Shown here piece after piece: positions 3,123-23,454 of a DNA stretch of 26,783 bases (its first letter is position 1; each line of letters starts with the position of its first letter). The position numbers and the translations under genes are program-made. The notes below the pieces were generated by a model. The model was not told the origin of the DNA and did not search any database. It saw only the letters and a list, made by a program, of their open reading frames with translations. Source of the stretch: a virus (lineage: Duplodnaviria > Caudoviricetes); the IMG/VR virus record IMGVR_UViG_3300030376_007003, positions 1-26,783 of that record, one strand, 5' to 3'.

Positions 3123-3730
3123 ATCAATTTCAAGCAAGTGCTATCTTCTTTAATTCTGCGGCAAACTGCTTCCCCGGTTTCCCTTTGCCCAAACCGTGCC
3201 GCCAATGTGGTTGGGCTAAAATTGGTGGTATAAATGGTTGGCAATAAATTATCCATTCTTTCCCTTATTAGTTCAAATATGGCCGATTCTGCGGTGGGTG
3301 TGGTCCTTTCCTTTCCTAAATCATCTACCAATAAAAGCTTTTGAAATATTAATTTTTCCATTAGTTCCGGTTCCCTTAATATTCGCCTAACAAATGATTC
3401 TGCACCAATTGCCATTGGTTTAGCTCCGGTGTTTAAATATCTAGTTTTGATTGCTTCCCAGGCAATGCGAGTTTTCCCGGTGCCGGTGGTTCCGCTCAAT
3501 AATAAATTTAATGGCTGCTTGGTTGGATGGTTTGCCCATGTCAATGCTTGGGCTAATTCTTTGCTTGGCAATCTGCCTTGCTCTGTTACCTGGCAAAATG
3601 CCGGTACAATTACATTTAATTCTAAGTGCCTCAGTTCTGCCCTTTCCTTTGCCCTTGCTTGTTCAATCTCTTCTTCGCTCATTAAATCATCCGGTAATTT
3701 AAAACCGGTTATTTGTTCAAATTCTTTCAT
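3119..3730 (-). CDS. DnaC/IstB-like AAA+ helicase loader
   Basis: Walker A GTTGTGKT, Walker B LLLVDDLG, sensor TIYTTN; follows the initiator gene. Confidence 0.88.
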   Translation of the reverse strand: MKEFEQITGFKLPDDLMSEEEIEQARAKERAELRHLELNVIVPAFCQVTEQGRLPSKELAQALTWANHPTKQPLNLLLSGTTGTGKTRIAWEAIKTRYLNTGAKPMAIGAESFVRRILREPELMEKLIFQKLLLVDDLGKERTTPTAESAIFELIRERMDNLLPTIYTTNFSPTTLAARFGQRETGEAVCRRIKEDSTCLKLI

Positions 3731-6363: not shown

Positions 6364-6452
6364 GAAAGGCTAATTTCTATAATTTATAATCAGTAAATTA
6401 CGATTTATTGAAAATAATGCATATTGTACGAATACGCTGCCAATCTTTTGCC

Positions 6453-6954: not shown

Positions 6955-7004
6955 ATGTTAAAAATTTGGTAAATTAATTATAAAATTTAACGCAACTGAT
7001 AACG

Positions 7005-7166
7005 CTAATTTTTTGGCTTTGTGAATAACTTGTAAATTCGTAAAATCAAATAGACGCAAGTTAGCATACCGGCAGCCAAACCAAACCACTCATTAAGCTG
7101 ACCAATTGAAATACTTGCAATGGTACCTAAAGCCCCAAATATTGGCGTTTTATCAATTTCGCTCAT
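7005..7166 (-). CDS. Putative class II holin, 53 aa (not in ORF track)
   Basis: MSEIDKTPIFGALGTIASISIGQLNEWFGLAAGMLTCVYLILRIYKLFTKPKN*: two hydrophobic segments, basic C-tail, ATGA coupling. Confidence 0.7.
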   Translation of the reverse strand: MSEIDKTPIFGALGTIASISIGQLNEWFGLAAGMLTCVYLILRIYKLFTKPKN

Positions 7167-7279
7167 GCGATTGTATCTAGTAAAATTATTAAAATAATTG
7201 CTGCCACAAATACAGTAAGCATTTTATTTCTTTTTGAAAATCTGTTCCAAGTAAGTTTGAGTAGTTTTAGGTTTTTCAT
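7163..7279 (-). CDS. 38-aa single-TM lysis-cassette peptide (not in ORF track)
   Basis: MKNLKLLKLTWNRFSKRNKMLTVFVAAIILIILLDTIA*; ATGA overlaps on both sides. Confidence 0.7.
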   Translation of the reverse strand: MKNLKLLKLTWNRFSKRNKMLTVFVAAIILIILLDTIA

Positions 7280-7710
7280 TTTTTAGGTTTAACCGGAAAA
7301 GGCGGCCGGGTCATGTTTTGCTCTGCCAATTTTTGGCAATGCTTAGAATAAAATAATGGAATGGCTAAATATATGCCGTACCCAATGGCTGCAAAAATTA
7401 GCATTTTTTTTAAATCATTTAAAAATGAAGAAAAACCGGTGTTTTGTTTGGCCACTTGGTCGGCAATAACTGCTGCAATTTGGCCTTGGCTTATTTGCTC
7501 AACCATATCTTTTTTGTCTGGGTCTGCTGCCCAATCATACGCAATCCCACTACCATAACCAAGTGTTGAACCAATTGCAGCCCCTGGAATGCCTCCTAGT
7601 GCTGCTCCTCCGGTGGCTCCGGCTAAACTGCCAACAAATGGAGCAGTTTTAGACCTTGAGCAAGAAGTAACAATTGCCAAGGCAATTAAACCAAGGCAAA
7701 TACATTTCAT
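7276..7710 (-). CDS. Glycine-zipper lipoprotein with C-terminal TM helix, putative unimolecular spanin
   Basis: Signal peptide plus lipobox VTS-C, GxxxG zipper, TM MLIFAAIGYGIYLAIPLFY; next to the holin. Confidence 0.6.
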   Translation of the reverse strand: MKCICLGLIALAIVTSCSRSKTAPFVGSLAGATGGAALGGIPGAAIGSTLGYGSGIAYDWAADPDKKDMVEQISQGQIAAVIADQVAKQNTGFSSFLNDLKKMLIFAAIGYGIYLAIPLFYSKHCQKLAEQNMTRPPFPVKPKK

Positions 7711-8037
7711 TTATGAAACCGTGATGGACCCGGTTGATTCTACTATTTCTGAGTCCCCAACTAGGTTTGAAGCACTTACACCGTAATAATAATCACCGGC
7801 AACAGATTCGTCATATGAAACCGTAAAAGTTTCTCCGGTTGTGCTAGAATTTCCGGTATTTGTGCTTTCAAGTGCAATATTAGTGCCTGTACCACTAACA
7901 GACCAGGTTGACCCGGAAAGTGAAACCGTCCCAATTAATGAATCACTAGTCAAAATAGTTGAACTAGTACTTTGATAAATTTTAAAAGCAGTTTCATTGT
8001 CTGCGTTGTCAGTCCAAGAAATTTGTATTTTTGCCAT
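7711..8037 (-). CDS. Stand-alone fibronectin type III domain protein (N-terminal A-strand missing)
   Basis: ISWTDNADNETAFKIY...YYYGVSASNLVGDS Fn3 signature; has its own GACA motif upstream. Confidence 0.8.
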   Translation of the reverse strand: MAKIQISWTDNADNETAFKIYQSTSSTILTSDSLIGTVSLSGSTWSVSGTGTNIALESTNTGNSSTTGETFTVSYDESVAGDYYYGVSASNLVGDSEIVESTGSITVS

Positions 8038-8057
8038 ACTATTGGCAAGCTTGTCAC
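8038..8057 (-). promoter_or_regulatory. Late-gene GACA motif
   Basis: GTGACA-AGCTTGCCAATAGT-ATG. Confidence 0.6.
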
Positions 8058-8058
8058 C

Positions 8059-9786
8059 TTAATCTATTAAATCTAATCGTAAAACTGCTTCGTTTACTAG
8101 CGCATCACCGTTTGAATCTAACCAATTTATTCTAATAACCGTGCGGCCTCGCAATGCTGAAACATCATTACCCCCGTCCACAATGGTGTATGACCAATTC
8201 ATACCGGCATGGTTTCCGATAACCACATCAAAAAGGCCAGAGTTATTTCCGGTGGTTTCATTTGTTAAAGTTACCGCAAACTGTGCGGTATTTGCAATAT
8301 TTGGTAATGGTATGTGAACCCGGTAATAATTCCCATTACTATAAGTCATGCCATAAATTTCAGTCCATTCGCCAGAGCTTGTAGGTACATTTGTTTGACT
8401 TCGTAGTGGTGAGTCTAAAGTTCCACCTTCACCGTGGTATACTGTAATTGTGCTTGGTGTGGTAGTGCCTGGGCTAATATCTTGAACAATCGGGACGCCT
8501 GGGGCGGTTGGCAAAACATTAGTAGCAATATTCCAATCTGTATGCCTTACAAAATTAGAATCTATATTTATCCATACGCTAGAATTATTATTATTTTTTA
8601 ATAAAATTCTTGTAACCGTGCCATTTAACAAAGTTATTTTTGTAGCTTCGTAATTTTGATTAGTAGTAAAATTATTTGGTGGTGTAGTTGTTAAAATTTG
8701 GATTTGTGGGTTTTGTAAACCTTCATCCTCAAAAACTAAATTACCGGTTGTAGAACCATTGCTTTTTTGTGTTGGAAAAATATCTTGATTTGTAATGTCA
8801 AGTAATTGAATGTTGCTTGGTTCTAAAGCAAAAGTTTCTGTTTGGGTTCCTGGTGCAAATTCTAATTGTGTGCCGGTTGGATATGTAGTTGCATGGTTAA
8901 AATCTGCGTTTGCCATATAATAAATTTGTGCAGCAGTTGTTGAATTATCATGTTGGTTTGCATTGCTCCAAATTTTTGAACCGTCCGATCTTCTATATTG
9001 CCGGCCACCATTTTCCTGTGTTTGTAAAATTTTTAAAAATTCGCCCACAATAGTTGTTTTCCCGGCATTTTCCCAACTAGCGGTTACTATACGGTCACCA
9101 AAATTGTGTGTGTGGTATTGTCCAAGTCCAAAATTATATAAATAAAGCGGATAATAGTAGCCTAGTCCATTATTACCGTCATCACCATAAACAATATATG
9201 CCACATTTTGTAATGTGGTAATATCAGATGGGGCTGATGGTGCATCTTGTTGATTTGTGTTTATTTCGCTTATTTGAATTGTGCTTGGTGCTGCCGGTAT
9301 TATTGTTGGTGCAGTATTAACTGCAATAATTGTACTTGGTTCATTTGGCAGCGTTGTATTTACTTGGCTAAATAAATTTAATTGATTTCGTACTGTGACA
9401 TTACCTTGAGCAAATGTTGTGCTTTGTCCTTGTCCATTGTTTACTTGTATCTCAAAAGTTAAATTTACTGATTCAATATTAGCTAATGCAGTTTCTAATC
9501 CAATTGTGTTTAAATTTAAATCGGCAATGTAGCAATTATTTGCATAACTAAAAGATTCTGTTTTTGCATAACTTTGATTTGGCACTATGTTGCCGATTGC
9601 AAATATTATTTCATTGTTTGCTTGTCCGCTAAATTCTGCCAGGTTTCCGGCTCCGTCTGTAAACATTATTTGCAAAGGTAAAACATCACCAAAAAATAAA
9701 GTTGGCATATTCGCCGCTTGATTGTCTGCTTGCCCGGCAATCAAGGCGTTTTTTGGGTCTGCGGTTGTGTCAATGTAAATCTTCAT
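8059..9786 (-). CDS. Tail fibre/receptor-binding protein 2 (baseplate-anchor-like N-terminus, mosaic C-terminus)
   Basis: N-terminal ~135 aa paralogous to 9783-11165; N/T/G-rich beta composition; located at the end of the tail module. Confidence 0.65.
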   Translation of the reverse strand: MKIYIDTTADPKNALIAGQADNQAANMPTLFFGDVLPLQIMFTDGAGNLAEFSGQANNEIIFAIGNIVPNQSYAKTESFSYANNCYIADLNLNTIGLETALANIESVNLTFEIQVNNGQGQSTTFAQGNVTVRNQLNLFSQVNTTLPNEPSTIIAVNTAPTIIPAAPSTIQISEINTNQQDAPSAPSDITTLQNVAYIVYGDDGNNGLGYYYPLYLYNFGLGQYHTHNFGDRIVTASWENAGKTTIVGEFLKILQTQENGGRQYRRSDGSKIWSNANQHDNSTTAAQIYYMANADFNHATTYPTGTQLEFAPGTQTETFALEPSNIQLLDITNQDIFPTQKSNGSTTGNLVFEDEGLQNPQIQILTTTPPNNFTTNQNYEATKITLLNGTVTRILLKNNNNSSVWINIDSNFVRHTDWNIATNVLPTAPGVPIVQDISPGTTTPSTITVYHGEGGTLDSPLRSQTNVPTSSGEWTEIYGMTYSNGNYYRVHIPLPNIANTAQFAVTLTNETTGNNSGLFDVVIGNHAGMNWSYTIVDGGNDVSALRGRTVIRINWLDSNGDALVNEAVLRLDLID

Positions 9787-11165
9787 GGTGCAGAATTTTT
9801 ATATTGGTGGCCGGTTGGCAAGTTTTCTTCCAATCCCCATTTATGAGCCAAGTAACCTTCAATTTTTTGTCTTACAGTATCGCTCGTTGAATCTACAATT
9901 ATAATTTCAGCAATTTCCCCTTCTGGATAATTATTTTCTGCTCGATTTGTAAATATTTTTAAATCTACATTTGAAGCTAATTTACTTGTATAATTTTGGG
10001 CAATAGTACCTTGAAGTTGTTCACCATTTACAAGTAATCTGTATTTTCCATCATCAGAAAAATCAAGGTCTGCACAAAATATGTTAAAACCAATCAAGCC
10101 GGCATTACTTGCAACGGTTGTTGAACCGTTAGGTTGATTTGCAAAAGTCAAAATTCCTCTAAACTGTGAATTATTTCCTGCACCTATTTGCCAGTCATTG
10201 CTTGCGGCATCCATTGCAATAATTGCGTCTGCATTATTATCTACCGTTGTTACATTACAAACAATATATGCTTGTAAGTTTCCGCTTGTTGGATTTGTAA
10301 AATTATTTATTTCAAAATAATCATTACCATCAAGTGCAATAACATTTAAATTATTTTGCTCTGTTGTGTTTGTTATTGGGGCTGCGTTTGCAATTAAATT
10401 ATTATTATTACCGCTTTTGTCATTCCATTGAGTAACAATGTTTTGGTTATGTGTGATAGTTGAACTATCTGATGCATCCAACCACAATTCTGTATCTATT
10501 TCGCTTGGCAACCATTCTTGTAAAAATTCCCATTGTAAACCATTATGCGTAAAATGTATTCCTACACCGCCGCCGGTAGTTTGTGCGTGTACTAAATCAG
10601 ACTGCACAAGTGTTATAGTGTAGATTTCCCCCAGGACTAAGCCTCTAGCGGGTTTATCTTGTAAAGCCAAAATTTGTCTACCTACATCGGACAATAAAAA
10701 TGTAGTTGGTTCGCTTGTGTTTTGAATTGTTACATTTTGTGGCGCGCTTGGTAATTCATAAAATTTAATCAATTGGTTTTGTATAGTGCATGGCATTTGG
10801 CAAAGTGTATTTGTTTTTCCGTTTGCATATGATATTTGAATTTCAAAAGTAAAAGTTTTTTGCTCTACTTCGTTTATTTCAGATGCCATTTTAATAGTTG
10901 CCAAATTTAAAACTGCTTTTCCATCACCGTCTAAATTTGTTTGTGTCAAAATTTCCCTAGTGCTTAATTTACCAATGGCAATTTTTATTTCGTGGCCGCC
11001 TTGCCCGGTAAATGGCGCAAGTCCCCCACCCTCTCCTAAAAACACTATTTCAATTGGTTTAACATCGCCAAAAATTAAAGTTGGTACGGTGGCTAAATGA
11101 TTATTACCGGCAGCCCGGACCAAACTTTGTGTAGCGTCTAAAGTCGTATTACAAAATAGTTTCAC
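9783..11165 (-). CDS. Tail fibre/receptor-binding protein 1 with C-terminal LamG/ConA-like domain
   Basis: LWLDASD...QWNDKSGNNN...GEIAEIII...RQKIEGYLAHKWG pattern of lectin-like phage tail domains. Confidence 0.72.
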   Translation of the reverse strand: MKLFCNTTLDATQSLVRAAGNNHLATVPTLIFGDVKPIEIVFLGEGGGLAPFTGQGGHEIKIAIGKLSTREILTQTNLDGDGKAVLNLATIKMASEINEVEQKTFTFEIQISYANGKTNTLCQMPCTIQNQLIKFYELPSAPQNVTIQNTSEPTTFLLSDVGRQILALQDKPARGLVLGEIYTITLVQSDLVHAQTTGGGVGIHFTHNGLQWEFLQEWLPSEIDTELWLDASDSSTITHNQNIVTQWNDKSGNNNNLIANAAPITNTTEQNNLNVIALDGNDYFEINNFTNPTSGNLQAYIVCNVTTVDNNADAIIAMDAASNDWQIGAGNNSQFRGILTFANQPNGSTTVASNAGLIGFNIFCADLDFSDDGKYRLLVNGEQLQGTIAQNYTSKLASNVDLKIFTNRAENNYPEGEIAEIIIVDSTSDTVRQKIEGYLAHKWGLEENLPTGHQYKNSAP

Positions 11166-11186
11166 TTTAAAGGGTTTGTTTGTCTA
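11166..11186 (-). promoter_or_regulatory. Late-gene GACA motif
   Basis: TAGACA-AACAAACCCTTTAAA-GTG; the TAG doubles as the stop codon of the upstream gene. Confidence 0.62.
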
Positions 11187-12032
11187 TTGTTCACAATCAA
11201 AAGAAATAAATTTATAATTTACAGTCCCTTGTGCGTTGTTTGTTTGTTTGCTTTGGTATGGCTCGTTGCCCTCAATCCAACCTTGTTGCCCAATTGGAAT
11301 TTTTCCCCCGGTCCACTCTTTTATTGTTTCGCCTTGGCTTGTTTCCCATGTGGCAGAAAAATCAATATATTTTACCGGGTCTTTTACATCTCCATTTAAG
11401 TCGTATTGCTGACTAGTTTGGCCTAAATATATCAAATTTCTATCATAAAATTCTGAAAGCGGAGATGGTGAAACATTTGAATGCCAAAAATTAACTTGCA
11501 AAGCCAAATCATTATTAATCAAAACTGCTTTTGGTTCTGTTAAACTGTAAATTTCCTTTTGTCTCAAACCTACTATAACATTAGGAGAAATAGTAGGTAT
11601 AATAGAAGTTGTGTTTTGCCCATTAAATCCCACACAAGTTCTTTCATTTGGTAAAAAAATGTCCGGGTTTGGGTCTGCGGTTGTGGCCGGTTTTGTAAAA
11701 TGATAAATTATATTTTTCTGCAAACTGACATTTGTATTTTGTGAAATATATTCATAGGTATCTGTTGCAGAATTATAACTTTGTTCCGTATTGGTAGAAT
11801 TTACAGAATAATTTATATCAATTTCCAATCTATAAATAGTAAACCAAAATCTTAAAAGGTCTGCATATGTTAAATTGTTTAAATACTGATAAAAATTGTC
11901 AGAATAAACATTTCCAAATTGTGTAAAATCTTGGCTTTGTTCTGCAATAGTCGGATTTTGCAATGCCAGGTCTAATCTAAAATTGTAAGCTGCAAATTTT
12001 GGAATTGGTTGTATAATATCATTTAGAAGCAT
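11184..12032 (-). CDS. Putative tail-tip protein
   Basis: 282-aa ORF between TMP and fibres; call is by synteny only. Confidence 0.55.
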   Translation of the reverse strand: MLLNDIIQPIPKFAAYNFRLDLALQNPTIAEQSQDFTQFGNVYSDNFYQYLNNLTYADLLRFWFTIYRLEIDINYSVNSTNTEQSYNSATDTYEYISQNTNVSLQKNIIYHFTKPATTADPNPDIFLPNERTCVGFNGQNTTSIIPTISPNVIVGLRQKEIYSLTEPKAVLINNDLALQVNFWHSNVSPSPLSEFYDRNLIYLGQTSQQYDLNGDVKDPVKYIDFSATWETSQGETIKEWTGGKIPIGQQGWIEGNEPYQSKQTNNAQGTVNYKFISFDCEQ

Positions 12033-12317
12033 TTATGTAGTATAAAAGGTTTTTTGTACTGCTTGGCCGTTTTCGCAAATATACATTGTAAATTCTTGGC
12101 CGGTTATATTACTTGGGCTTGTTTGTGTTGGTTCTGGTGGTTGCGGTATTGTTAAAACTACACCATTAGAACCATAAGAAGCATTAAAATATTCTCCGTA
12201 ATTTATGGTAATGTTCTGCAATGCGTTGATTGCGTCAACTAATTCATTTGCTTTTGCAGCACTTAAAAGGGTTGGTGTTTGCCCGGCCCTTAATCGACTA
12301 ATAATTTCACCACTCAC
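12033..12317 (-). CDS. Small putative tail-tip protein
   Basis: 94 aa, LSAAKANELVDAINAL helix; call is by synteny. Confidence 0.55.
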   Translation of the reverse strand: MSGEIISRLRAGQTPTLLSAAKANELVDAINALQNITINYGEYFNASYGSNGVVLTIPQPPEPTQTSPSNITGQEFTMYICENGQAVQKTFYTT

Positions 12318-13273
12318 CTAAATTTTATTAAAGTGTTTTTAGTGGTGTAAATACTACCAATGAACTGCTCTACCACCGTTTCGTTTGGTTGAATTTCCAC
12401 ACCATCAGTAATGTAATTTTGATAGGTTGCTTCACTTGGTGAGCTTGTGGTACTTAAAAAATTAGTTTCTTCAGAGCTACCAATTTTGGTATATGTATTT
12501 ATAACCTCCTGCCCCTCAACCGTGCTTGTTGATTGCTCAACAGTTCTTTTTTTGTCAAAAATTTTAAATTGGTCTGTAATTTCTAAATTATCAAAATTAT
12601 ATCCATTTGCTAAAGCTGCAACTGCTTGCCAATCATCTTGGCCTTTGCCTTGCCTAGTAAATTTTAAAGTTATCTCAACATCATTAAAAAATATTTTGAA
12701 ATCTGAATTTTCTAATATTTCTGTTGGGTAATATATTTGTTCTTTATATAAAATTGCAGTTGATAGTGTTATTTCACCTTTTTGTAAAGTAATAGTTTTT
12801 GCATTGGTGTTATCTAGTAAATTGTGCCATTGCACTACCTGGCGGCCGGTTACTTGCTTGGTAATTGGGTTTCTCCAAATGCGTTCTTTAAAATCCGTTA
12901 AAGTGCTTGTGGTGTTCCCATCTTCATCAATCTCTGTTGTGTATTGTGGTTCTAAACTTTTAAAACCTGGAAAAGCGTAAGAAATTAAAACCGGTTGTTC
13001 ATATTGTGTAGTTGGAAATTCACAAAAAGTCCGGGTAAAACTAAAAAGGCCACCTGCTAAATTACTAAAATTTGATTCTTCAACTAAAATTGCATTGGCA
13101 TGAACCGGGTGAGTTATGCCAATTTGTGGAACTGTGTACTCACTAGCTAATTGCACAAAATCTTGAAAATATAATTTTAAAGAGTTAAAATTTTGTATTG
13201 GGTAAGTTGTTCTAGCTGCCTTAATTGCAACCGGTCGTACAAAATTACCATCATATGTAATATTACTTATCAT
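12314..13273 (-). CDS. Putative distal tail/hub protein
   Basis: First large beta-rich ORF after the TMP, with a THP..LVEE...FTRTF pattern. Confidence 0.55.
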   Translation of the reverse strand: MISNITYDGNFVRPVAIKAARTTYPIQNFNSLKLYFQDFVQLASEYTVPQIGITHPVHANAILVEESNFSNLAGGLFSFTRTFCEFPTTQYEQPVLISYAFPGFKSLEPQYTTEIDEDGNTTSTLTDFKERIWRNPITKQVTGRQVVQWHNLLDNTNAKTITLQKGEITLSTAILYKEQIYYPTEILENSDFKIFFNDVEITLKFTRQGKGQDDWQAVAALANGYNFDNLEITDQFKIFDKKRTVEQSTSTVEGQEVINTYTKIGSSEETNFLSTTSSPSEATYQNYITDGVEIQPNETVVEQFIGSIYTTKNTLIKFR

Positions 13274-13284
13274 TTCGCCCTAAA

Positions 13285-13575
13285 TCATTTTTTTTGTTTT
13301 TGTTTTTGCTCTTGCTTTTGCTTGTTTTGGATTTGCTGCTGCTTTGTTTGGATTTGTTTTTCTTTAGATTGTTCTTTTTTTTGTTTTTGTTTTTGTTTTT
13401 GTTTTTGTTCTAAATCTTTATTTCTATCCTTCTGTATTTTTTGTTTTTGTTCGTTCGTAATAATTTGGTTATTTTTAGTTTTTCCGGTTTTTGTGGTTAT
13501 TGAAAGCGAGCCTTTAGTTGTACCTTGTTTTTCAACCGTTACTTTTACTTTTCCAACTCTTCTGCTAGTTTTCAT
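13285..13575 (-). CDS. Gln/Lys-rich low-complexity basic protein
   Basis: Open frame fills the TMP-to-tail gap; (QK)n tract. Confidence 0.5.
   Translation of the reverse strand: MKTSRRVGKVKVTVEKQGTTKGSLSITTKTGKTKNNQIITNEQKQKIQKDRNKDLEQKQKQKQKQKKEQSKEKQIQTKQQQIQNKQKQEQKQKQKK
13381..13409. repeat. Hexanucleotide tandem repeat (TTGTTT)n, nearly 5 copies
   Basis: ttgtttttgtttttgtttttgtttttgtt, encoding QKQKQKQKQ. Confidence 0.8.
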
Positions 13576-16213
13576 TAACAAATCTACCTTGTAAAATTTC
13601 TATTATTTCTTCCATTGTTGCATCCTTTGCCAAGCTTTCAGTATCTACTTCTAAATTTATATAATTATTAACCGGTGTTGGTTCTGGTGCGCCAGGTCCA
13701 CCAGGTGGTAAATTTAAATTTTGTATTTCTCCGGCAATCCGGTTTCCTAATTGTGCTATTGCTTGGCTTAAACTGCCTTGCAAGTCAGAGAAATCCGGTA
13801 CTTGGCCATTTTCTTGTATGGCTGCCAATATATTTCTTAAAGTTGATTCAGTTGCTAAATGGTCTGTTTCAACTTCAAGATTAATTGAATTATTTACCGG
13901 TGTTTGGTGTATATCTCCCATTCCACCACCACCTGGAATTAATCGCATGATTGCCAACCTAATTGCTTCACCGGCATCTCTAATAGCCTGTTCACCGGCC
14001 GTAAGTGCTTGGCCAAGTCCTTGTTGCACTTGATTGCCTACTTGTTGCAAATCTTGTTCAGCATTTGCTTTTTGTCGCTGCAAATCTGCTTCTTTTTGTG
14101 CGGCTGCTCTTTGCAGTTCTCTTTGTTTGTCCGCTGCTTCTTGTGCAATTTCAGCCCTGCGATTTTGCAAAGCTTGCATTTGTTCAGCGTGTTGGTCTTC
14201 AATCTGCAACCTTTCTTGCTCTAGTTGTGCCAAATCTGCCCTGGTTTGGTCATCTAATACCAATTCTAGCTTTCTTTCTTTAACTGCGTTTAACCGGTCA
14301 ATTTCTCTTTGCGCGCGGTCCCCACCTTGTGCTTGTAAAGCTAAAATTTGTTGTTCAAGTCCTTGTACTGCTCTGGCTGCCCGGATTCTTGCTCGGTCAT
14401 TTGCATCTATTGCGTCTCCAATGTCTCTTTGTGCCTGTTCTTGTATTGCGGCATTTCTTAAATCAGCTTGTTGCTGCTCGTTCTTTTTTTGTAAAATTTG
14501 ATTTTCTAAACCTAGCTTTCTTTCTAAATGATTGACTGCAACACCACCTTGTAAATTTAAACGGTTTTGTAGTTGTTCAATTTGTCGGTTAATGTCAAGT
14601 TGCTGCTGCAATTTGTCTGCCTCTTCGTTTCGGCCTTGTGCGCGCATTTGTAAAATTCGCAATTTGTCAGATTCTAATTGCCGCCCGGCCTGGTGTAATC
14701 GGTTTTCCTCTTGTAATTTTTGGATAATTGCCTGGCGGTCGGCCTCCTGGTCTTTCAAATCAACTTTTCTTTGTTGTTCCGCTTTTATTTGCTGCTGCAA
14801 TCTTAATTCTTGGTTTTCAGCTTGTACTATTTGAGTAACTAAAGTTACAGCTTGCTGCCTGGTCATATTGCCCTGTTCCATTAACCGGTTTATTTGGTCT
14901 TCTTGGTCGTGCCTTTGTTCTACTACTCTTAGCGCATCTTCTCCACCGTTTCGCATTGCTTCAATGCGTTCTAAAGTCCGCTCTAAAGTTCTTTCTTCTT
15001 GTTGCCTTAAACCATTAATGGCATCAACTGCATTTTTTTCTTTGTTTGCTTCTTCAACAATTGCTTGGTGTTTCCCCAAATTTGCGTTTAATTGCTGATT
15101 TGCCCGGTCATTGGTCTGTAATTTTCTGCCGTTAACCTCATTAAATCGTTCTTGTAATTCATTAAACCTAGTCTGCAAATTTTCTTTTATATTTTGTTGT
15201 TCAATATCTTCTTCAAATATTTGTCTTTTTCGGTCTGCTAGAGTTCTGGCACTTTCAATTTGTGCTTGTTCTAATCTTTGAATTGAAGCTCTTAAAAGTC
15301 TTTCGCTTTCTTCAATATCTCCACCAATTAAGCCAAACAAGCTTATACTTCTAAATGGGTGTATAATTTCTTGTGCGGCTCGATTAGCAGCAGCCGCTAA
15401 TAGTTCAAACTTGGCCATTATTTCACCTTGTATAACACCACCAAGCACTCTTAATGCATTACCTACATTTGGTATAGCTAAAGCCAACAGATCAAATCCT
15501 AGTTTTGCATTTTGCAAAAATCTAATTAGCGGTGGAAAAACTTCAGCACTAAATATTGTAAATTGTCTTTTTGCCTGTTCTAATTTTCCACTAGCATTTT
15601 GCAAAGCTCTAACTGTGTCATTTTCTAAAATTAATCCTAAATTTCTAGCTGAATTTGCATAGTCATCTAAACTCGGTTTTCCTTGCTGAAACATTTGTGT
15701 AAGTGCTGCCCCCTCAGTATCCAAAAATTGAAAAGCAATTCTTAATCTTTCGGCCGGGTTTTGCATTCCTGTCAAAGCAATTCCAAAATCTCTGAACATA
15801 TCTTCTGTGGTCCTAGCTTGGCCTTGTGAGTCAACCATAGAAATATTTAAGCTTCTTAATGTGTCTGCTAATGCTCCACCATTTGCCTGGGCTTCAGCAA
15901 CTCTTCTGGTAAATCGCTGCAATGCAGTTGCTGCGGTATCTGCACTAATTCCACTTTGTTCTGCCGCAAATTGTAATTCTTGCAAAAATGTACTGCTTAC
16001 GCCTAAACGGTCAGACATATCGCCAATTGCTGCCCCAAAATCAATTATTTTTGTTGTGGTTGCTGCAATAGCTGCCGTACCAAGCGAACCAATAAACCGG
16101 TTTTGCATTGTTCGTGCAAACCTTTGAATTTTTGTTTCAGCTTGGTTTAAACCGTCATTAAAACCTCGGCTATCTAAGCCCAACATTACTTTTACATGGT
16201 CTGTAAATGCCAT
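13565..16213 (-). CDS. Tail tape measure protein
   Basis: Longest ORF; N-terminal LGLDSRGF..GL and IGDMSDRLGVS..LQELQFAAEQSG TMP motifs; long coiled coil; follows tube and chaperone. Confidence 0.9.
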   Translation of the reverse strand: MAFTDHVKVMLGLDSRGFNDGLNQAETKIQRFARTMQNRFIGSLGTAAIAATTTKIIDFGAAIGDMSDRLGVSSTFLQELQFAAEQSGISADTAATALQRFTRRVAEAQANGGALADTLRSLNISMVDSQGQARTTEDMFRDFGIALTGMQNPAERLRIAFQFLDTEGAALTQMFQQGKPSLDDYANSARNLGLILENDTVRALQNASGKLEQAKRQFTIFSAEVFPPLIRFLQNAKLGFDLLALAIPNVGNALRVLGGVIQGEIMAKFELLAAAANRAAQEIIHPFRSISLFGLIGGDIEESERLLRASIQRLEQAQIESARTLADRKRQIFEEDIEQQNIKENLQTRFNELQERFNEVNGRKLQTNDRANQQLNANLGKHQAIVEEANKEKNAVDAINGLRQQEERTLERTLERIEAMRNGGEDALRVVEQRHDQEDQINRLMEQGNMTRQQAVTLVTQIVQAENQELRLQQQIKAEQQRKVDLKDQEADRQAIIQKLQEENRLHQAGRQLESDKLRILQMRAQGRNEEADKLQQQLDINRQIEQLQNRLNLQGGVAVNHLERKLGLENQILQKKNEQQQADLRNAAIQEQAQRDIGDAIDANDRARIRAARAVQGLEQQILALQAQGGDRAQREIDRLNAVKERKLELVLDDQTRADLAQLEQERLQIEDQHAEQMQALQNRRAEIAQEAADKQRELQRAAAQKEADLQRQKANAEQDLQQVGNQVQQGLGQALTAGEQAIRDAGEAIRLAIMRLIPGGGGMGDIHQTPVNNSINLEVETDHLATESTLRNILAAIQENGQVPDFSDLQGSLSQAIAQLGNRIAGEIQNLNLPPGGPGAPEPTPVNNYINLEVDTESLAKDATMEEIIEILQGRFVNEN

Positions 16214-16233
16214 GACAAGTGTATGGTTGTCTA
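16214..16233 (-). promoter_or_regulatory. Late-gene GACA motif
   Basis: TAGACA-ACCATACACTTGTC-ATG. Confidence 0.6.
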
Positions 16234-16234
16234 T

Positions 16235-16822
16235 TTAGTTATTTTGTGCCTTTGATTTTCTTGCCTGTTCCAATAAAGCTTTTGCTTCCATCATATCAAT
16301 TGCGCGAAGTTTGGTATAATTTTCACCGGCTTGTTTTGCGTATCTTTCACCAATTGCAGTTGATAATTGGTAAATTTGCCGCATTGGAAGATTCAAAACA
16401 TATTGGATATTCCAACCATATTCTCGGCCAAAAAGGTCTACCATATACGCAACAAAATTCGCATATTTTTTTTGGTCTGAATCTGTGCTTTCTGCATCCT
16501 GGAAAGTTAAGGTCAAATATTCTGTTATTTCTTGAACGGCCAAACCAATACTCAAATCAAAAATTTCCTCAATAAATTCTTGCCTAGCTTTTTTACATAG
16601 TGAATATTTCGGACTAATTACCCACAAAAAAAGCCCAACATCAACCGGGCTGAAAGATTTATTTTTTATAAATGGTGAGTTTATACCATCTAGTAGCAAA
16701 AAATGGTGTAAAGTCATATGGTTGACTTCTACACCGGCAATTTCAGTTTTTAGGTTTAGCCAACTTTCTGATTGCCAGGATTCAGCCTGGTCAATCGCTT
16801 TTTGTATTTCCTCCGGTAGCAC
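16235..16822 (-). CDS. Tail assembly chaperone
   Basis: Lies between tube and TMP; C-terminal LFGREYGWNIQYVLNLPMRQI resembles gpT-like segments. Confidence 0.65.
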   Translation of the reverse strand: MLPEEIQKAIDQAESWQSESWLNLKTEIAGVEVNHMTLHHFLLLDGINSPFIKNKSFSPVDVGLFLWVISPKYSLCKKARQEFIEEIFDLSIGLAVQEITEYLTLTFQDAESTDSDQKKYANFVAYMVDLFGREYGWNIQYVLNLPMRQIYQLSTAIGERYAKQAGENYTKLRAIDMMEAKALLEQARKSKAQNN

Positions 16823-16831
16823 CGGAAAGAA

Positions 16832-17188
16832 TTAATTTAATTTAGCGCGAGCAGAAAAAGACTGTGTGCTAAATGCACCGTTGCTTTTTGTTATGCTTGT
16901 TTCAGTAACTAAAAAAGTTGTGTCACTTGTTTCTGTAGCGTGTACCTTAAAAGAAAATTCGTCACCTCGTTTAAGCAAAGGTGTGTCATTTTCCACTACT
17001 GCCGTTCCGCTTGCTTCTCTTGGGCGGCCAACAAAAACTTGGCTTATAATATCACCGTCAGAGCCTTCAAGCTCTATAACATTAGTTCCTTCCGAAACCG
17101 ATATTTCTTGAAAAAGGTATTCTTCGGTGTTGATCGTAAGAACTAAACCACCAAATGAATAATTTGAACCGTCAATAGTTGCTGCCAT
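16832..17188 (-). CDS. Tail tube (major tail) protein, minimal 118 aa
   Basis: All-beta composition, MA- start, position before chaperone/TMP, own GACA motif with AU-rich leader. Confidence 0.65.
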   Translation of the reverse strand: MAATIDGSNYSFGGLVLTINTEEYLFQEISVSEGTNVIELEGSDGDIISQVFVGRPREASGTAVVENDTPLLKRGDEFSFKVHATETSDTTFLVTETSITKSNGAFSTQSFSARAKLN

Positions 17189-17211
17189 AATATTTTTTTA
17201 TAAAAAGGTTT

Positions 17212-17234
17212 ATTTCTAAGGGTTAATCTGTCAC
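17212..17234 (-). promoter_or_regulatory. Late-gene GACA motif
   Basis: GTGACA-GATTAACCCT-TAGAAAT, nearly identical to the capsid-gene copy. Confidence 0.68.
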
Positions 17235-17504
17235 CTAGCTTTTTATTTTATACCAAACTTTTTGCCGCCTTTTCCCATCACATCCTATGTCTTGGCCGTG
17301 AAAAACTAAAATTGTGCCATTTTTTATACCATTTCTTAATTGCCTACGCAATCTACATTGTCCGATTTTCATAAAATCTAAAATTTCATAAAATGTATTC
17401 CAACCTGGACCGTCTGGTTTTTTTCCTTTTAGTTGCTCTTTTGTAATTTGGTCTAAAGCATTTGCCCAGGCTACAGAGTTATTGTTTTTTCTATTAATTG
17501 CCAT
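17235..17504 (-). CDS. Small basic winged-HTH-like protein
   Basis: GWNTFYEILDFMKIGQCRLRRQL...VWYKIK; overlaps the phosphoesterase end. Confidence 0.55.
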   Translation of the reverse strand: MAINRKNNNSVAWANALDQITKEQLKGKKPDGPGWNTFYEILDFMKIGQCRLRRQLRNGIKNGTILVFHGQDIGCDGKRRQKVWYKIKS

Positions 17505-18205
17505 TTATTATTTTTTCCTTTTCTAGCTTGGTATACTTCCCATTCTTGCCCATCCGTAAAACCGTAGGCAAAACCATGTGCGTGTAGCATTCTGGCGGTT
17601 TGGTGTGCGTTATAATCCATATCTAAATTGGCTAAACATCCAACTGCCCTAGCTTGGCCACCATCAATTTTAGCAATACTTGCGTGTTGTATAGAATGCG
17701 TATGCCCATGCAAACAAATGCCACCTGGTGGTGCATAGATTTCTGCGTGTTTTTTTGTTGCATATATACCGGCATGAAATCCATGTATAAAACGGATTTT
17801 TCCTAAGTCATAATAGCCGGTATTTGATTTATAAGGTATAATTTTGCATTTAATTTTTCGGCAGCGGCTTTTTATGTCTTTTACACCTTGCTTTGCATAA
17901 TCAGCAATAATACCGCTTTCACTAAAATGGGCTGCATCCCACAGTCTTTTATCGTGGTTTCCTAATAAAAAAATATTTGGTTTAAAATCATTTAAAAAAT
18001 CAAGTCCGGCCTCAACATCTGCGGCCATGCTTTCCTGTTTTTCGCTTGGTCCGGCTCCTCTTCTTATGTTTCTAAAATCAAATAAATCACCACCAAAAAC
18101 TTTTATTTCCGGTTTCCAGATTTCACAAAATTTTAAAAGTACCTCAACGCTTTCGTAATCTTGTTGGTCACCGTGTAAATCGGTGGCAAAAATAAATTTC
18201 TTCAC
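17471..18205 (-). CDS. Calcineurin-like metallophosphoesterase
   Basis: All five motifs present: DLH, GGDLFD, LGNHD, HG, GHTH. Confidence 0.9.
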   Translation of the reverse strand: MKKFIFATDLHGDQQDYESVEVLLKFCEIWKPEIKVFGGDLFDFRNIRRGAGPSEKQESMAADVEAGLDFLNDFKPNIFLLGNHDKRLWDAAHFSESGIIADYAKQGVKDIKSRCRKIKCKIIPYKSNTGYYDLGKIRFIHGFHAGIYATKKHAEIYAPPGGICLHGHTHSIQHASIAKIDGGQARAVGCLANLDMDYNAHQTARMLHAHGFAYGFTDGQEWEVYQARKGKNNKWQLIEKTITL

Positions 18206-18214
18206 AATTAAAGA

Positions 18215-18955
18215 CTATACTAATTCCCACCCAGAACCTTGAAAAACTATTGAACTAAACCAAGTCTGGCTTAGTGGAGTAGTGTCTAAGTCAGTTTTGA
18301 AGTGAATTGAATTTTTAGTATTATCTGTTAAATATTGACCGCCAACAATTTCTACAATTGTTCCAACAGGTAAGTTTCTGCCATTGCTTGCTGCGGTTGT
18401 AAGTAATCTGACTTGCGCACCTAAAACAACTTGCGATACTTTTTCAGCTAAAACATTGGTTGGTGCTGCCGGTGGTAATATTTCACTTGTTAGAATATTG
18501 CTTGGTGCTTCCGGGGCTTTTGTTAAATTTAAATCTATTATAAATTTTAAAGTATATTGTAAAACCGTTTGATCTAAATTTTCTTCTTCTTGTTCTGTTG
18601 TTACGCTGCCAAGCGGCAATAAATCTAGAAAAGTGTATCCATCAACACTAAGACCGTTATTTGAATTTAAAAATAAATTTCGTGCTTGGCCTAAAGTTGC
18701 ATTGTGGTTGTTTCCATCTTGGCGTGTGGTGCTTACAAGTAAGCTTATTGTTCCGGTATGTGCAACATATTCAAATTTACTTTTATATTTTTGCCTTGGG
18801 TCTTCTATTGCCCCTGCATATTCAAACAGGCATTCAATACTGTCCCTAGAAATGGTACTTAAATTTCTGCCAGGAAAAGCAGATAAATTATTATTATTCA
18901 AAAACTCAACCGTGGCCGATTCAATATTTTTTTCAAATTGGAATAATGCACTCAA
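18215..18955 (-). CDS. Tail terminator/completion protein with C-terminal accessory domain
   Basis: Synteny after head closure; ~145-aa core followed by PxAP linkers and a small beta domain. Confidence 0.55.
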   Translation of the reverse strand: MSALFQFEKNIESATVEFLNNNNLSAFPGRNLSTISRDSIECLFEYAGAIEDPRQKYKSKFEYVAHTGTISLLVSTTRQDGNNHNATLGQARNLFLNSNNGLSVDGYTFLDLLPLGSVTTEQEEENLDQTVLQYTLKFIIDLNLTKAPEAPSNILTSEILPPAAPTNVLAEKVSQVVLGAQVRLLTTAASNGRNLPVGTIVEIVGGQYLTDNTKNSIHFKTDLDTTPLSQTWFSSIVFQGSGWELV

Positions 18956-19272
18956 CCTTGGCCCTCCAAAGTTAAATTATAACCGTGGCTAAATTCCAAA
19001 GTTTCCACTTCAGTTATTCTAAACTGTTTTGCCTGGTAAGTCACAAATTCATTAACTTTTGGCGGCTCCGGGTTATCTACTGTTCCCGGTTGTGCAAGCA
19101 CCATATTAATTGCTTCGTTTTGGTAATACCCGGCTGCCCTCATTGCTTTAGTCTGGTTAGTAGTCCCAACTAAAGCTTTAAGGGTTTGGCCTTTGAAGGT
19201 AATAGATTCCCCTATTACTGAAATTTCAGCAACAAGGTTGTCTTTTAAAGCCTTGCCGATTGTGTCGGCCAT
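18952..19272 (-). CDS. Head-closure / head-tail joining protein (gpFII-like)
   Basis: 106 aa, GESITF...PPKVNEFVTY..KQFRITEV beta-barrel pattern after the capsid gene. Confidence 0.68.
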   Translation of the reverse strand: MADTIGKALKDNLVAEISVIGESITFKGQTLKALVGTTNQTKAMRAAGYYQNEAINMVLAQPGTVDNPEPPKVNEFVTYQAKQFRITEVETLEFSHGYNLTLEGQG

Positions 19273-19282
19273 TGGCTTTTGC

Positions 19283-20161
19283 TTACGAGGCTTTTAAAGC
19301 TGCAATGTTGGAAGCTTTTGCAACTCCTACACCGTAGCAAGTTGTGAATGCTGCGAAGTGTTCACCTTTTGCAGCATCGTAATATCTGCGGTATGCACAT
19401 TGTATGCCCAGGCCTTCAACTTCAAACGGCGTATATTCTTCCAAAGTTGCTCCACCTTGAACATCTGGCATTCTGTTAACTACAACAATTGCGTCACTTG
19501 AACAAGCAAATGAGTGAATTTTTCCACTAGCAGTATTATTTGCGTTTTGTGGGTTTACGCTCATTCCAAAAAGGTTTGTAAACCGTCCGGATTCAACTAC
19601 ACCATTTCCGAAAGTTTCACCGGTCGCTGGAATTATTGCAGAATTTGCGGCTGCATTAACGATAAAGTGCCTATTCATTGGCGCGCCTTCTCCGTCAAGC
19701 TTTCCGGCTAATCCTTTAACATCAGAAATGGCAACTGAACCGGCTGCTTTAGCAGTAACTGAACCACCGGCAAATCCGCTTGCGGTTGCTCCGTCAAGTT
19801 CGTTAAAAATTACCCTTAAAAGATAACGGCCAAACTCGTTGGCATTTTGTGCAACATAACTTTGCAAAGTCAATGGGCTTTTGTTCAAGTCATTGTCTGA
19901 AAGATGAAATGGCTTGATTCTTTCAACAACTGAAACATCAATTGTGCTTGCATCAGTATCAGCATTTTGGCCATAACCGGTACTAGCAGAATAGTCTCTA
20001 GCTTCATCATCTGTATTTATTACCGGAACTGCAACTGTTGCGGCTCGCCCTACAACATCATTGCTGACATTTAAAGTAAATGCAGAAATTGGAGCTAACA
20101 TATTTTGCAATGTGCTAACTGCGGTTGAAATTGTAAGTTCGCTTGATATTGAATTTGCCAT
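19283..20161 (-). CDS. Major capsid protein (HK97 fold)
   Basis: 292 aa after the protease; TVAVPV, GRFTNLFGMSV and terminal YGVGV patterns. Confidence 0.82.
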   Translation of the reverse strand: MANSISSELTISTAVSTLQNMLAPISAFTLNVSNDVVGRAATVAVPVINTDDEARDYSASTGYGQNADTDASTIDVSVVERIKPFHLSDNDLNKSPLTLQSYVAQNANEFGRYLLRVIFNELDGATASGFAGGSVTAKAAGSVAISDVKGLAGKLDGEGAPMNRHFIVNAAANSAIIPATGETFGNGVVESGRFTNLFGMSVNPQNANNTASGKIHSFACSSDAIVVVNRMPDVQGGATLEEYTPFEVEGLGIQCAYRRYYDAAKGEHFAAFTTCYGVGVAKASNIAALKAS

Positions 20162-20189: not shown

Positions 20190-20212
20190 ATTTCTAAGGG
20201 TTTGTCTGTCTA
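20190..20212 (-). promoter_or_regulatory. Late-gene GACA motif
   Basis: TAGACA-GACAAACCCT-TAGAAAT; the TAG is the protease stop codon. Confidence 0.68.
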
Positions 20213-21118
20213 CTTATTCCAATTCTTTAAGAAATAACTCATGTTATCGTTAATCATTTTTCCTTTTTCAGTCCATGAGTTGCACTTGGCCACCTGGTCC
20301 TCAATTGAAAGTGTTTCAACCTCAACTTGACCGGCTAATGGTTCAGCCCCTAAATCATCTTGCATCTTTCCAAACTTGGCTTGCCAAATAATTGTTTCGG
20401 CTTTTGCTTCGGCTAAACTTTCTGTTAATTGATTAAGTTCTAGCTCAAGGTCATCTGCTTTTTTATTTAAAAGGTCTGCGGTTTCTTTTGTCTGCTCAAG
20501 CTCAAGTTTCAAGCTTTCGTTTTCCTCCTGGGCCTTATTCAAATTAAAGCTTAAAAATTCCTCATGGTCTACTTCTTCTTCTTTTGCGATTGAGAACAAA
20601 CCGGTTGGGTTGGCTGCCGGTTCTGCAACTATTGAAAAAGCACTTACTTCTAACGCCCTAGCGTAAATTTCGTCAACGCCCTCTTGGCCGGAAAAATTTA
20701 CGGCTTCACCGTCTTGGTAAAAAAATGTTTCACCGGTAAATTCTGCACTAACACCAAATGCTTCTGGGGCTTTTTCGGCTAATTCAAAAAATGCGTCATA
20801 TTCTGCTTGATGGTGTTCTTTCCAAGAATTTAAAGCACTAAAATCTGCCGTTAGTTTTGTGTATTCGTCATCTTCCACAATTTTGAAATTGTCCCACAAT
20901 CCAATTGAGTCCAATGCCTCATTATCTTCGTGTGTATAGTAAGCTTTAATTTGCTTACCCTCGGTGGCTGCCAAAAATGATTTGATGCTTTCACCGTCTA
21001 TTTTAAGTCCGTGGCCTTTGGCCTCCGGTGTGGAAATTACACTAACACCGGTAATTTCACCGTTTTCTTTATCTACTTGCCCGGACCCAATTGATTTAAA
21101 ATAAAAAATTTCTTCCAT
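20210..21118 (-). CDS. Prohead protease with C-terminal acidic coiled-coil scaffold
   Basis: EAKGHG..ID, YYTH, FGVSAEF, VAEPAANPTGLFS, then an E-rich coiled coil. ATG 21118 preferred. Confidence 0.78.
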   Translation of the reverse strand: MEEIFYFKSIGSGQVDKENGEITGVSVISTPEAKGHGLKIDGESIKSFLAATEGKQIKAYYTHEDNEALDSIGLWDNFKIVEDDEYTKLTADFSALNSWKEHHQAEYDAFFELAEKAPEAFGVSAEFTGETFFYQDGEAVNFSGQEGVDEIYARALEVSAFSIVAEPAANPTGLFSIAKEEEVDHEEFLSFNLNKAQEENESLKLELEQTKETADLLNKKADDLELELNQLTESLAEAKAETIIWQAKFGKMQDDLGAEPLAGQVEVETLSIEDQVAKCNSWTEKGKMINDNMSYFLKNWNK

Positions 21119-21139
21119 AACTAGAAGGTGGTCTGTCAC
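21119..21139 (-). promoter_or_regulatory. Late-gene GACA motif
   Basis: GTGACA-GACCACCTTCTAGTT-ATG, immediately after the terminator. Confidence 0.62.
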
Positions 21140-22089: not shown

Positions 22090-23454
22090 TTATTCTTCCG
22101 GTGGTGCGGTTCCATACTTCGCTTGCAAACTCTTCATAAGTGCCTTGTCTTTTTCCATTCGCTCGGCCTCGGCCTCAAAGTCCTTGCCATTGTTTGCAAA
22201 AATTTCTGTGTGGCTTGCCAGGTTTTCTTTCAACAAAATTGCGTCTGTTTGTGCGTCTTGCCTTCGGTCTAATGTCGGTGATGTTGTCCATTGGAAAGAA
22301 AAATTTTCGTGTTCGCCCTCCGGTGGTTCTGGTAATTCCCCGGCTGCGGTGGCCTTGTAACACCTCCAAGTCAATAATCTTCTTAAAAAGCTTTCTTCTA
22401 TAAATTCTCGCAACATTGCAAACCGGTGGTTTGTAACTGCTCTTGTGCTTTTGCTGCTTGAAAAACTTGCGTTACTCCATCCAACCAAATTTTCCACCGT
22501 TATGCCTACACTTGAACAAGCAAAAGAAATTAATTGTGTCAAAAATTGGTCCACTCCATCAATGTTGCCGCCCTGGATAGTCTCAACGCTTTCGCCTTGT
22601 TCTAATAATAAAATGCTACCGTTATATAATTTTGTATAAGTTGAACGCATTGGTTCACCGTCAAAATCGTTACCATCCCACCGGGCAGAATATGGTTGGT
22701 TTGAAGTAATAAATCCGGTCAATGCTGAACTAGTTTTAACCTTGGCGGTGTAAGCTGCCTGGACCGTGTGTATATCTTGCAATGTTTGGGCTGCACTTGC
22801 CAACATTGGTGTTCCTCTTAATTGTCCAATTCGGCTTTTGTTTGCAATGTGTATTAAATTCTTTGCTTCAATATAGCTACCCTTATCATAATCAACCATA
22901 CCATTTGATACCTGGCAAATACGGTAAGATTTAACTTGGCCGAAACGGTCCAAAACTATTCCATCCGATTCGTTGGCTTTTCTTTTGTCTGGAAATTTGC
23001 TGCTTGCAACTCTTTCAGATGGTACTAACTGAATGCTGCCTCCTTTTGTTAATATGCAAAATACTTCACCGGCTAAAAGTAAATCTGTAATGATTGAACC
23101 AAGCACCCGGCTAATTCCTTGACCGGTAATTTCAACCTTTTTTAAATACTTATTTAAAACCTTTTCTTTTTGATTATTAAAATCACTATTTTCTGTTGTG
23201 CTTCTTAATTGGCAATGGCCTAAATTACTTACAAATACTTGGGTAATTGCTTTTGCAATTGGGTTGTTTCGCTCCAAATCCCTCAAGCAGCTTAATAATT
23301 CCAAGCGGTTTGAATGCTGCAATACTCGCTCTTCACTTAGTGCTATGCTTGAACGGTCTAAGGCATCTTCATTTTTCCTCCAACTTGGCCGGGCAGCACC
23401 GTATCCCAAATTAATGGGTTGGCCCCTGTGGTCTAATAATTCTTGTCGCTGCAT
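22090..23454 (-). CDS. Portal protein, lambda family
   Basis: RDLERNNPIA, GIVLDRFG...Y, RIGQLRGTP, WSNASFSSS, TLDRRQD patterns. Confidence 0.92.
   Translation of the reverse strand: MQRQELLDHRGQPINLGYGAARPSWRKNEDALDRSSIALSEERVLQHSNRLELLSCLRDLERNNPIAKAITQVFVSNLGHCQLRSTTENSDFNNQKEKVLNKYLKKVEITGQGISRVLGSIITDLLLAGEVFCILTKGGSIQLVPSERVASSKFPDKRKANESDGIVLDRFGQVKSYRICQVSNGMVDYDKGSYIEAKNLIHIANKSRIGQLRGTPMLASAAQTLQDIHTVQAAYTAKVKTSSALTGFITSNQPYSARWDGNDFDGEPMRSTYTKLYNGSILLLEQGESVETIQGGNIDGVDQFLTQLISFACSSVGITVENLVGWSNASFSSSKSTRAVTNHRFAMLREFIEESFLRRLLTWRCYKATAAGELPEPPEGEHENFSFQWTTSPTLDRRQDAQTDAILLKENLASHTEIFANNGKDFEAEAERMEKDKALMKSLQAKYGTAPPEE

Follow-up and report, generated by a model that had tools for sequence, protein, structure and literature searches.

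The stretch analysed here (the window) is the 26.8-kb viral record IMGVR_UViG_3300030376_007003 (26,783 nucleotides (nt); CheckV completeness 83%), in which every gene lies on the minus strand. Its tail module ends with two fibre genes, then an open reading frame (ORF) encoding 108 amino acids (aa; 7711..8037) and then a lipoprotein-like gene. The product of this ORF (start MAKIQISWTDNADNE…) is, from its reading frame, its family and an AlphaFold2 model, an Fn3/immunoglobulin (Ig)-like protein without strand A. Short peptides resembling the missing strand, referred to here as tags, occur in the two fibre proteins and in a neck protein of the same window. Comparison with related phages indicates, with high confidence, a genomic pattern in which A strands and Fn3 bodies are split between genes.

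The 108-aa ORF is separated from the stop codon of the preceding fibre gene, fibre 2 (TAA, 8059-8061), by a 21-nt spacer (8038..8058) in the same frame. The seven codons of the spacer (GDKLANS) include no ATG, GTG or TTG and no A-strand-like sequence, and the ORF cannot be extended upstream because no start codon follows the fibre 2 TAA. A late-gene motif that the earlier note on this DNA had assigned to the gene was not substantiated: the window has a single copy of the spacer sequence, the upstream regions showed no motif in common, and promoter-like sites in the window are at chance level (25 versus 22.9).

An exhaustive search returned 663 homologues of the protein at an expectation value (E) of at most 1e-3, of which 148 were at E<=1e-10. 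The strongest are giant proteins matched 10-24 times each, and nearly all of the listed alignments to their repeats begin at query residues 1-5. The similarity is to the bacterial WxDNSxNE Fn3 repeat family, with a B-strand/WxDNxxNE motif and an F-strand motif (YYYxV…N..G.S) common to the 108-aa family and the giant-protein repeats. No Pfam family (fn3 models included) was matched by the 108-aa protein at E<=0.01, nor any PHROG, and a profile search of its family against PDB sequences gave nothing at E<=0.01. A family profile search limited to proteins of 59-195 aa yielded 97 clusters, every one of 107-114 aa. Alignment of 58 of these with the window protein showed M1, A2, Q5, D10, E15, F18 and W45 to be invariant, all aligned members beginning MAx[IV]Q[IF]S[WF]xD. 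The small Fn3 gene is carried by 15 IMG/VR loci and by further metagenome loci, always as the last gene of the tail module and ahead of lysis genes. It is found in two phage lineages, one siphovirus-like with a tape measure gene and a second with none in view. Among cellular genomes, 79 loci were found, all with canonical multi-repeat Fn3, and in none of them did a full-length counterpart of the small protein exceed 41% identity. Megablast of window positions 7000-19000 against a phage collection gave no match and hence no close relative. An Fn3 domain (KLTLTWTDNADNEDGF) was also seen right behind a signal-peptide-like stretch in a 241-aa frame of two other loci (L002, ORF 2649-3371; L003, ORF 9611-10333), with a tag-like PSAPAAPSGL behind the domain.

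An AlphaFold2 monomer model of the 108-aa protein built with the 58-cluster family alignment reached a predicted local distance difference test score (pLDDT) of 96.5 and a predicted template modelling (TM) score of 0.87; the single-sequence model (pLDDT 33.9) was unusable. The fold in the aligned model is a two-sheet beta-sandwich of eight predicted strands (residues 2-10, 17-23, 33-41, 44-49, 52-56, 69-77, 81-90 and 105-107). It is not the complete seven-strand topology, as the protein begins 3 residues ahead of strand B. That the protein starts at strand B had been noticed before, and is borne out by the ORF, the repeat alignments, a consensus of 1173 repeats and the AlphaFold2 alignment. 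Foldseek found no PDB match to the model at E<=0.001. A wider structural search gave Z scores of 8-8.9 to V-type Ig sandwiches over 91-98 residues, values near 8 being such as may reflect a common arrangement. The whole model (1-108) aligns to V-type Ig chains only from about residue 13-19, past their A/A' strands, and the resemblance to V-type domains is due to the extra hairpin formed by strands 44-49 and 52-56. In a search of viral models, the best phage matches came from tip attachment proteins of the J type, to whose Fn3 domains the model aligned (TM score 0.63-0.65, root-mean-square deviation 2.3-3.2 Å, E 0.02-0.03). The protein is therefore modelled as an Fn3/Ig sandwich that lacks strand A and has an additional hairpin of the C'-C'' type, and is predicted to fold alone.

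A-strand-like peptides in the fibre and neck proteins

In canonical repeats, P(-16)-x-A(-14)-P(-13)-[ST]-[NG]-L(-10)-[TS]-A(-8) stands ahead of strand B (I-x-L-x-W-x-D-N-[SA]-x-N-E), and by sequence the stretch from P(-16) to A(-8) corresponds to the part missing from the 108-aa protein. A scoring matrix for this strand was derived from 1173 canonical repeats of 129 large homologues and applied to the 37 ORFs of the window at a threshold of at least 8 bits. Seven matches were obtained; 200 shuffles gave 1.09 on average and never more than 5. The earlier note had listed ten A-strand-like peptides in four tail proteins. All ten lie within 3 nt of the positions it gave and only in those proteins; six of them are among the seven matches, and the remaining four score weakly.

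Three of the six belong to fibre 2 (LPNEPSTIIAVN, residues 146-157, 9316..9351, 8.7 bits; IPAAPSTIQISE, residues 163-174, 9265..9300, 9.7 bits; APSAPSDITTLQ, residues 182-193, 9208..9243, 11.0 bits) and one to fibre 1 (LPSAPQNVTIQN, residues 138-149, 10719..10754, 8.8 bits). The other two are in a 246-aa protein: APEAPSNILTSE (residues 147-158, 18482..18517, 10.2 bits), which is conserved in the related locus L008, and PPAAPTNVLAEK (residues 161-172, 18440..18475), the best match of the window at 18.0 bits. Tag DNA is also alike between genes (78% over 46 nt, 9262-9307 in fibre 2 versus 18479-18524 in the 246-aa gene), roughly as expected from the residues in common. Of the weak peptides, PTAPGVP in fibre 2 (LPTAPGVPIVQD, 8479..8514, 6.3 bits) marks a conserved junction ahead of the C-terminal module of this fibre, found also in L124 and L125. 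LEPSNIQ (fibre 2, 8806..8826) scores below 2 bits and is retained in L124, as NAPSQIT in the equivalent position. TTPSTIT (fibre 2, 8443..8463, 2.0 bits) is not A-strand-like. Neither is TSPSNIT in a 94-aa protein (12102..12122), which at 1.7 bits and with no counterpart in the L124 homologue is probably due to chance.

The seventh match, PAANPTGLFSIA (20585..20620, 10.6 bits), is in a head-module ORF (20210-21139), between the N-terminal domain and the coiled-coil tail of its product. A PA(A/S)NPTGLF motif at this site is conserved in L008, L009, L041 and L043, and may be a processing site or a coincidence.

The tag-bearing proteins are modular. Fibre 2 (575 aa, 8059..9786) consists of an N-terminal anchor of ~140 aa, the three tags and distal modules. 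Fibre 1 (460 aa, 9783..11165) has an anchor, its tag, a small domain of ~75 aa and a C-terminal phrog_10356 module (…IEGYLAHKWGL…). The ~140-aa N-terminal domain is common to both fibres (37% identity), and in both a tag stands right behind it. The 246-aa protein (18215..18955), a neck/tail-completion protein, has a core of ~145 aa, two tags and a C-terminal domain of ~72 aa. Neither this protein nor the 94-aa protein has a family match that would sustain the names 'tail terminator' and 'tip protein' used for them earlier. Small domains of unknown fold begin directly behind the tag of fibre 1 and behind the second of the two tags in the 246-aa protein. A hidden Fn3 body in these places was considered and rejected, hhalign showing no similarity to the Fn3 family in what follows the tag of fibre 1 and those of the 246-aa protein (probability 0.4-0.6%). 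The statement that the tags are not followed by Fn3 bodies thus holds by sequence, with the reservation that two of them do open small domains.

The C-terminal module of fibre 1, with the signature …(K/I)EGY(L/M)(A/S)HKWG…, changes place between fibre and neck proteins from one relative to another (window, 9783-10760; L009, 8406-10004; L041, 8077-9555; L043, 5683-7719; L010, 3-1400) and is always attached through tag peptides. An esterase-like domain, as read from the sequence by eye, accompanies it in L043 and L010. In L013 (4652-6199 and 6203-9958; also in L017), a 515-aa protein ends in …HWYDASDTNSQIP, which resembles the start of this module (…WLDASDSS…), and the next ORF starts MPVPSAIDEL; this pair may represent another domain split over two genes.

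Strand and body in related phages

The distribution of the two halves was assessed in 22 related phage loci carrying the family (95,860 residues in ORFs of at least 100 aa), an A strand being scored as orphan if it matched at >=8 bits with no body motif within 30 residues. All 60 A-strand matches in these loci are without a body. In 19 other viral loci, 15 such strands lack a body and 26 have one; the corresponding numbers in 79 cellular loci are 107 and 265. Conversely, 28 of 28 body motifs stand 3-5 residues behind an initiator methionine, the one labelled internal being so merely through an upstream TTG call. In these phages, strand and body thus never stand on the same domain. A co-occurrence of both halves, which the earlier note proposed to test in related genomes, is seen in these 60 strands and 28 bodies. 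A control search with the tag array of L009 matched only itself, and a search with the tube protein (five loci) gave no relative with tags and no Fn3, or with Fn3 and no tags: L041, L043 and L044 are on contigs with the small Fn3 gene, and L008 and L042 end before the fibre region.

In four loci, the strand forms the very end of the gene upstream of the body. The fibre of L009 ends in …RPNRPTNVSATI and the next ORF starts MAIVQISFQDN; in L129, the end is …APVAPSELSAT and the next start MATVQISFRDN. The pair in L020 has the end …LPLSASAVTATGT (…SASAVTATGT) and the start MTKEIGIFFQD, and that in L135 the end …TPFAPSLVTAFIQ (tail …PFAPSLVTAFIQ) and the start MSHYINMQFRDN (MSHYINMQF…). On the matrix, the upstream chain reaches position -7 to -5 and the downstream one sets in at -5 to -3, so that each in-register pair rebuilds one canonical domain, at most one residue short. 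C-terminal strands of at least 6 bits were found in 4 of 24 non-redundant pairs and in 8 of 1205 control gene pairs, two of the latter eight being free C-terminal tags in family phages themselves (the 174-aa protein of L008 and the 148-aa protein of L009). The ends in L023 (…SEPTNVTIEEL), L018 (…MPTNPYQLISRSI) and L205 (…KKPSLVTTTEL) look alike by eye and are below the threshold.

Such an arrangement could in principle allow the halves to be fused during translation, by readthrough or frameshifting, giving a full Fn3 in cis on some fibre copies. In its favour, the window and L009 have the fibre ORF and the Fn3 ORF in one reading frame, four pairs share an ATGA overlap (as in coupled genes), and Ig-like domains are reportedly added by frameshifting in phages (Fraser et al. 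2006). This explanation is nevertheless very improbable and was rejected: the L009 gap has three in-frame stops, none of the upstream ORFs has a slippery heptamer in its final 90 nt, and just 3-16 codons ahead of the ATG are open in the downstream frame. Readthrough in the window would add GDKLANS and still no A strand. Body and strand are accordingly on separate, in-register ORFs with no means of fusion in L009, L129, L020 and L135, which is not the case for the fibre 2/Fn3 pair of the window.

From these sequences, the 108-aa A-less sandwich may dock on virion proteins by taking up an A-strand-like peptide in trans, a proposal whose chances fall slightly short of even. The A-less Fn3 is not confined to small proteins. 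It is also the N-terminal domain of larger ones in L018 (700 aa), L020 (965 aa), L023 (506 aa) and L125 (275 aa), and in P0133, P0202 and P0233, which speaks for docking since fibres usually attach through their N-terminus. The L125 protein is 81% identical to the 108-aa protein in the common part and bears its own C-terminal module of 165 aa, and two tandem small paralogues are present in L019, L020, L023 and L135. The L125 module and the tandem paralogues would also suit a different use of the open B and G edges, either in edge-to-edge pairing of the protein with itself or in a tip or cap protein augmenting the distal sheet of fibre 2. The tandem paralogues, the position of the gene always directly behind the last fibre gene, and the L125 module, such as a distal adaptor would have, are consistent with it. 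The preceding fibres, however, differ completely in their C-terminal modules and the small protein remains 50-90% identical, which argues against a specific contact with a fibre module and renders this use of the edges rather unlikely.

The position of the tags calls for a further explanation to be weighed. They lie exactly at domain boundaries, and relatives gain or lose modules there. L124, whose Fn3 is 90% identical to that of the window, contains additional modules between the tags of fibre 2, and its fibre 1 homologue stops after the ~75-aa domain that starts at the tag. The L008 homologue of the 246-aa protein is 73% identical, has 174 aa and ends right behind the tags (…PAAPGNIVLSQLLPPTAPSNILTQLV). 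In L009, L041 and L043, it is a homologue of the 106-aa neck protein of the window that bears 12-residue tag repeats in arrays, with distal domains behind them, and the homologue of the 246-aa protein is without tags. The tags may consequently be proline-rich linkers or module junctions, derived from the linker and A strand of tandem Fn3 arrays, that do not bind the small protein. The latter would then be a self-sufficient Ig-like accessory, for example a weak surface-binding module, that joins the virion otherwise or not at all. This is the main rival and has a considerable probability, though one clearly below even. It agrees with the confident monomer model obtained with no partner, with the joining of neck proteins to distal domains by tag arrays and with the drift of the repeat sequence among phages. 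It leaves unexplained the 28 N-terminal bodies and the 60 bodiless strands, the exact register of the A strands at upstream gene ends, and free C-terminal tag tails with nothing to link. In this respect, the L008 protein indicates that tags persist with no domain to connect, and the residues P..AP.N[IV] are kept between it and the window protein while neighbouring residues have changed.

Several observations weigh against docking in trans, some of them already favouring linkers. AlphaFold2 folds the 108-aa protein confidently with no added strand, and it may thus be stable without a donated one; an Fn3 of the same type also lacks its A strand behind the signal-peptide-like stretch of L002 and L003. 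The window tags sit where relatives exchange modules, four of the ten listed are weak by the matrix, and the match in a head-module protein means that A-strand matches are not specific. Tag repeats drift (PLAPSNL in L009, SPLEPDQL in L041), and still the small Fn3 is 50-58% identical. Just 4 of 24 pairs pass the threshold, and most small family members have no adjacent donor. In the window itself the fibre 2 C-terminus (…LRLDLID, score -10.8) has no A strand, so any strand taken up must come from internal tags. All family loci are, moreover, from related phages, and the co-occurrence counts are not independent events; a relative with tags and no Fn3 gene, or the reverse, was not found as a control in the searches described.

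Neighbouring genes of the window

Pfam and PHROG scans identified a terminase small subunit (26230-26718), a terminase large subunit (24440-26233), a portal (22090-23454), a metallophosphoesterase (17471-18205), a tape measure protein (13565-16213) and, below position 6400, replication genes. A candidate capsid gene (19283-20161) is assigned from its position alone and has no family match. The metallophosphoesterase is calcineurin-like (Pfam, E 1.1e-05) and, together with an 89-aa ORF (17235-17504), is located within the neck/tail module, between the 246-aa protein and a 118-aa tube-like protein; both are present in L008 and absent from L009, L041 and L043.

Directly after the Fn3 gene, a 144-aa protein (7276-7710) has a lipoprotein-type signal (…VTSCSRSK) at its N-terminus and a hydrophobic helix at its C-terminus, the architecture of a putative one-piece (unimolecular) spanin. 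Homologues of it are found behind the Fn3 gene in L010, L016 and L124. A 98-aa ORF (13285-13581) beginning inside the 3' end of the tape measure gene is of very low complexity, rich in K, Q and E with KQKQKQ repeats, and its DNA has T-rich repeats with a 12-nt period. The ORF at its position in L124 is likewise repetitive, with a different repeat. Almost no gene of the window has a Shine-Dalgarno-like sequence within 45 nt upstream, which, together with a GC content of 34-41%, suggests a host group with weak use of such sequences.

Comparison with known systems and proposed mechanism

Giant bacterial surface proteins contain tandem Fn3 repeats of the (L)xWxDN[SA]xNE type, which are clear sequence homologues of the 108-aa protein. 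Each of these repeats has its own P-x-A-P-S-N-L-T-A strand 8-16 residues ahead of strand B, whereas the 108-aa body starts at Met1 and has an extra hairpin (44-49, 52-56). In chaperone-usher pili, an incomplete Ig-like sandwich is completed by a strand of another polypeptide, and a strand from another chain thereby joins subunits non-covalently, as would be the case here. Those pilins lack the C-terminal G strand and receive an N-terminal extension; in the phage family it is strand A that is missing, and the candidate donors are C-terminal or internal. No sequence relationship to the pilins was found, no chaperone or usher gene was detected in the Pfam (17 ORFs) and PHROG (27 ORFs) scans of the window, and the phage virion is assembled in the cytoplasm. 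SpyTag/SpyCatcher is an engineered split of the CnaB2 Ig-like domain, in which a strand peptide and the rest of the domain reassemble and are locked by an isopeptide bond, the tag being portable to any protein. In the phages the split would be natural and the reassembly non-covalent, no covalent lock being evident. Hoc-like, Big_2 and Fn3 additions on phage structural proteins are likewise small Ig/Fn3 modules among virion genes, but they are whole domains covalently integrated in the structural protein, unlike a separate gene product short of one strand.

The T5-like phage DT57C offers a similar case in tails, where the sheets of the collar protein LtfC are extended by one or two beta strands of the fibre chain LtfA (PMC10713586). 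A fibre chain there too gives strands to a small tail beta-sandwich; the acceptor LtfC, a dodecameric collar, has a complete fold whose sheet is extended. The present system would be set apart by a candidate acceptor that lacks a native strand and by a donor that matches the family consensus of that strand. Full-text literature searches, judged from their listings and in part from titles and abstracts, brought up no account of a naturally split Fn3 in the tail of a phage, which would make this a novel form of known strand complementation, with moderate confidence in the split-Fn3 mechanism itself.

For the family, the best reading is a split Fn3 that is likely rejoined in trans, because the A-less family is conserved, all 28 bodies are N-terminal, all 60 strands are bodiless and gene ends meet in register. 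The two halves would reassemble after translation, the A-less bodies binding A-strand peptides by edge-strand pairing next to strand B, and the peptides would be presented at C-termini or inside arms. In the window, the donors would be internal tags, the best candidates being those of the 246-aa protein (residues 161-172 and 147-158) and of fibre 2 (residues 146-193). The outcome would be attachment to neck and fibres of an Ig-like module, which may bind the host surface or stiffen the arm, or, where the body heads a larger protein, of a whole distal fibre protein. The earlier proposal that one small gene of high copy number decorates many tail sites finds no support in these results.

An extended chain spans ~3.3 Å per residue and an Fn3 domain ~35-40 Å, so that the 12-residue period of the arrays would approximate the length of one domain. 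In that case, a tag array loaded with bodies could mimic a tandem Fn3 rod. An extension of the mechanism, speculative and on the whole unlikely, is that each 12-residue tag on neck and fibre proteins captures a free body, a string of tags and many copies of the 108-aa protein building a non-covalent poly-Fn3 rod, with distal fibres snapping onto C-terminal tags via their N-terminal A-less Fn3. If true, these phages would have a plug-in system, economical in genome length, for docking their receptor-binding modules.

Even with no reassembly of the halves, the small protein represents a widespread, unannotated family of phage tail proteins (97 clusters) with no Pfam or PHROG family. If they do reassemble, they would constitute a natural split-domain connector in viruses, in which a short portable peptide brings in either an Ig-like module or an entire distal fibre, and would provide a natural non-covalent tag/catcher pair for protein engineering. 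A sequence rule for joining tail proteins would also follow, a C-terminal A strand and then an N-terminal A-less Fn3, and this would explain how receptor-binding modules are swapped between neck and fibre proteins in small phages (~30 kb).

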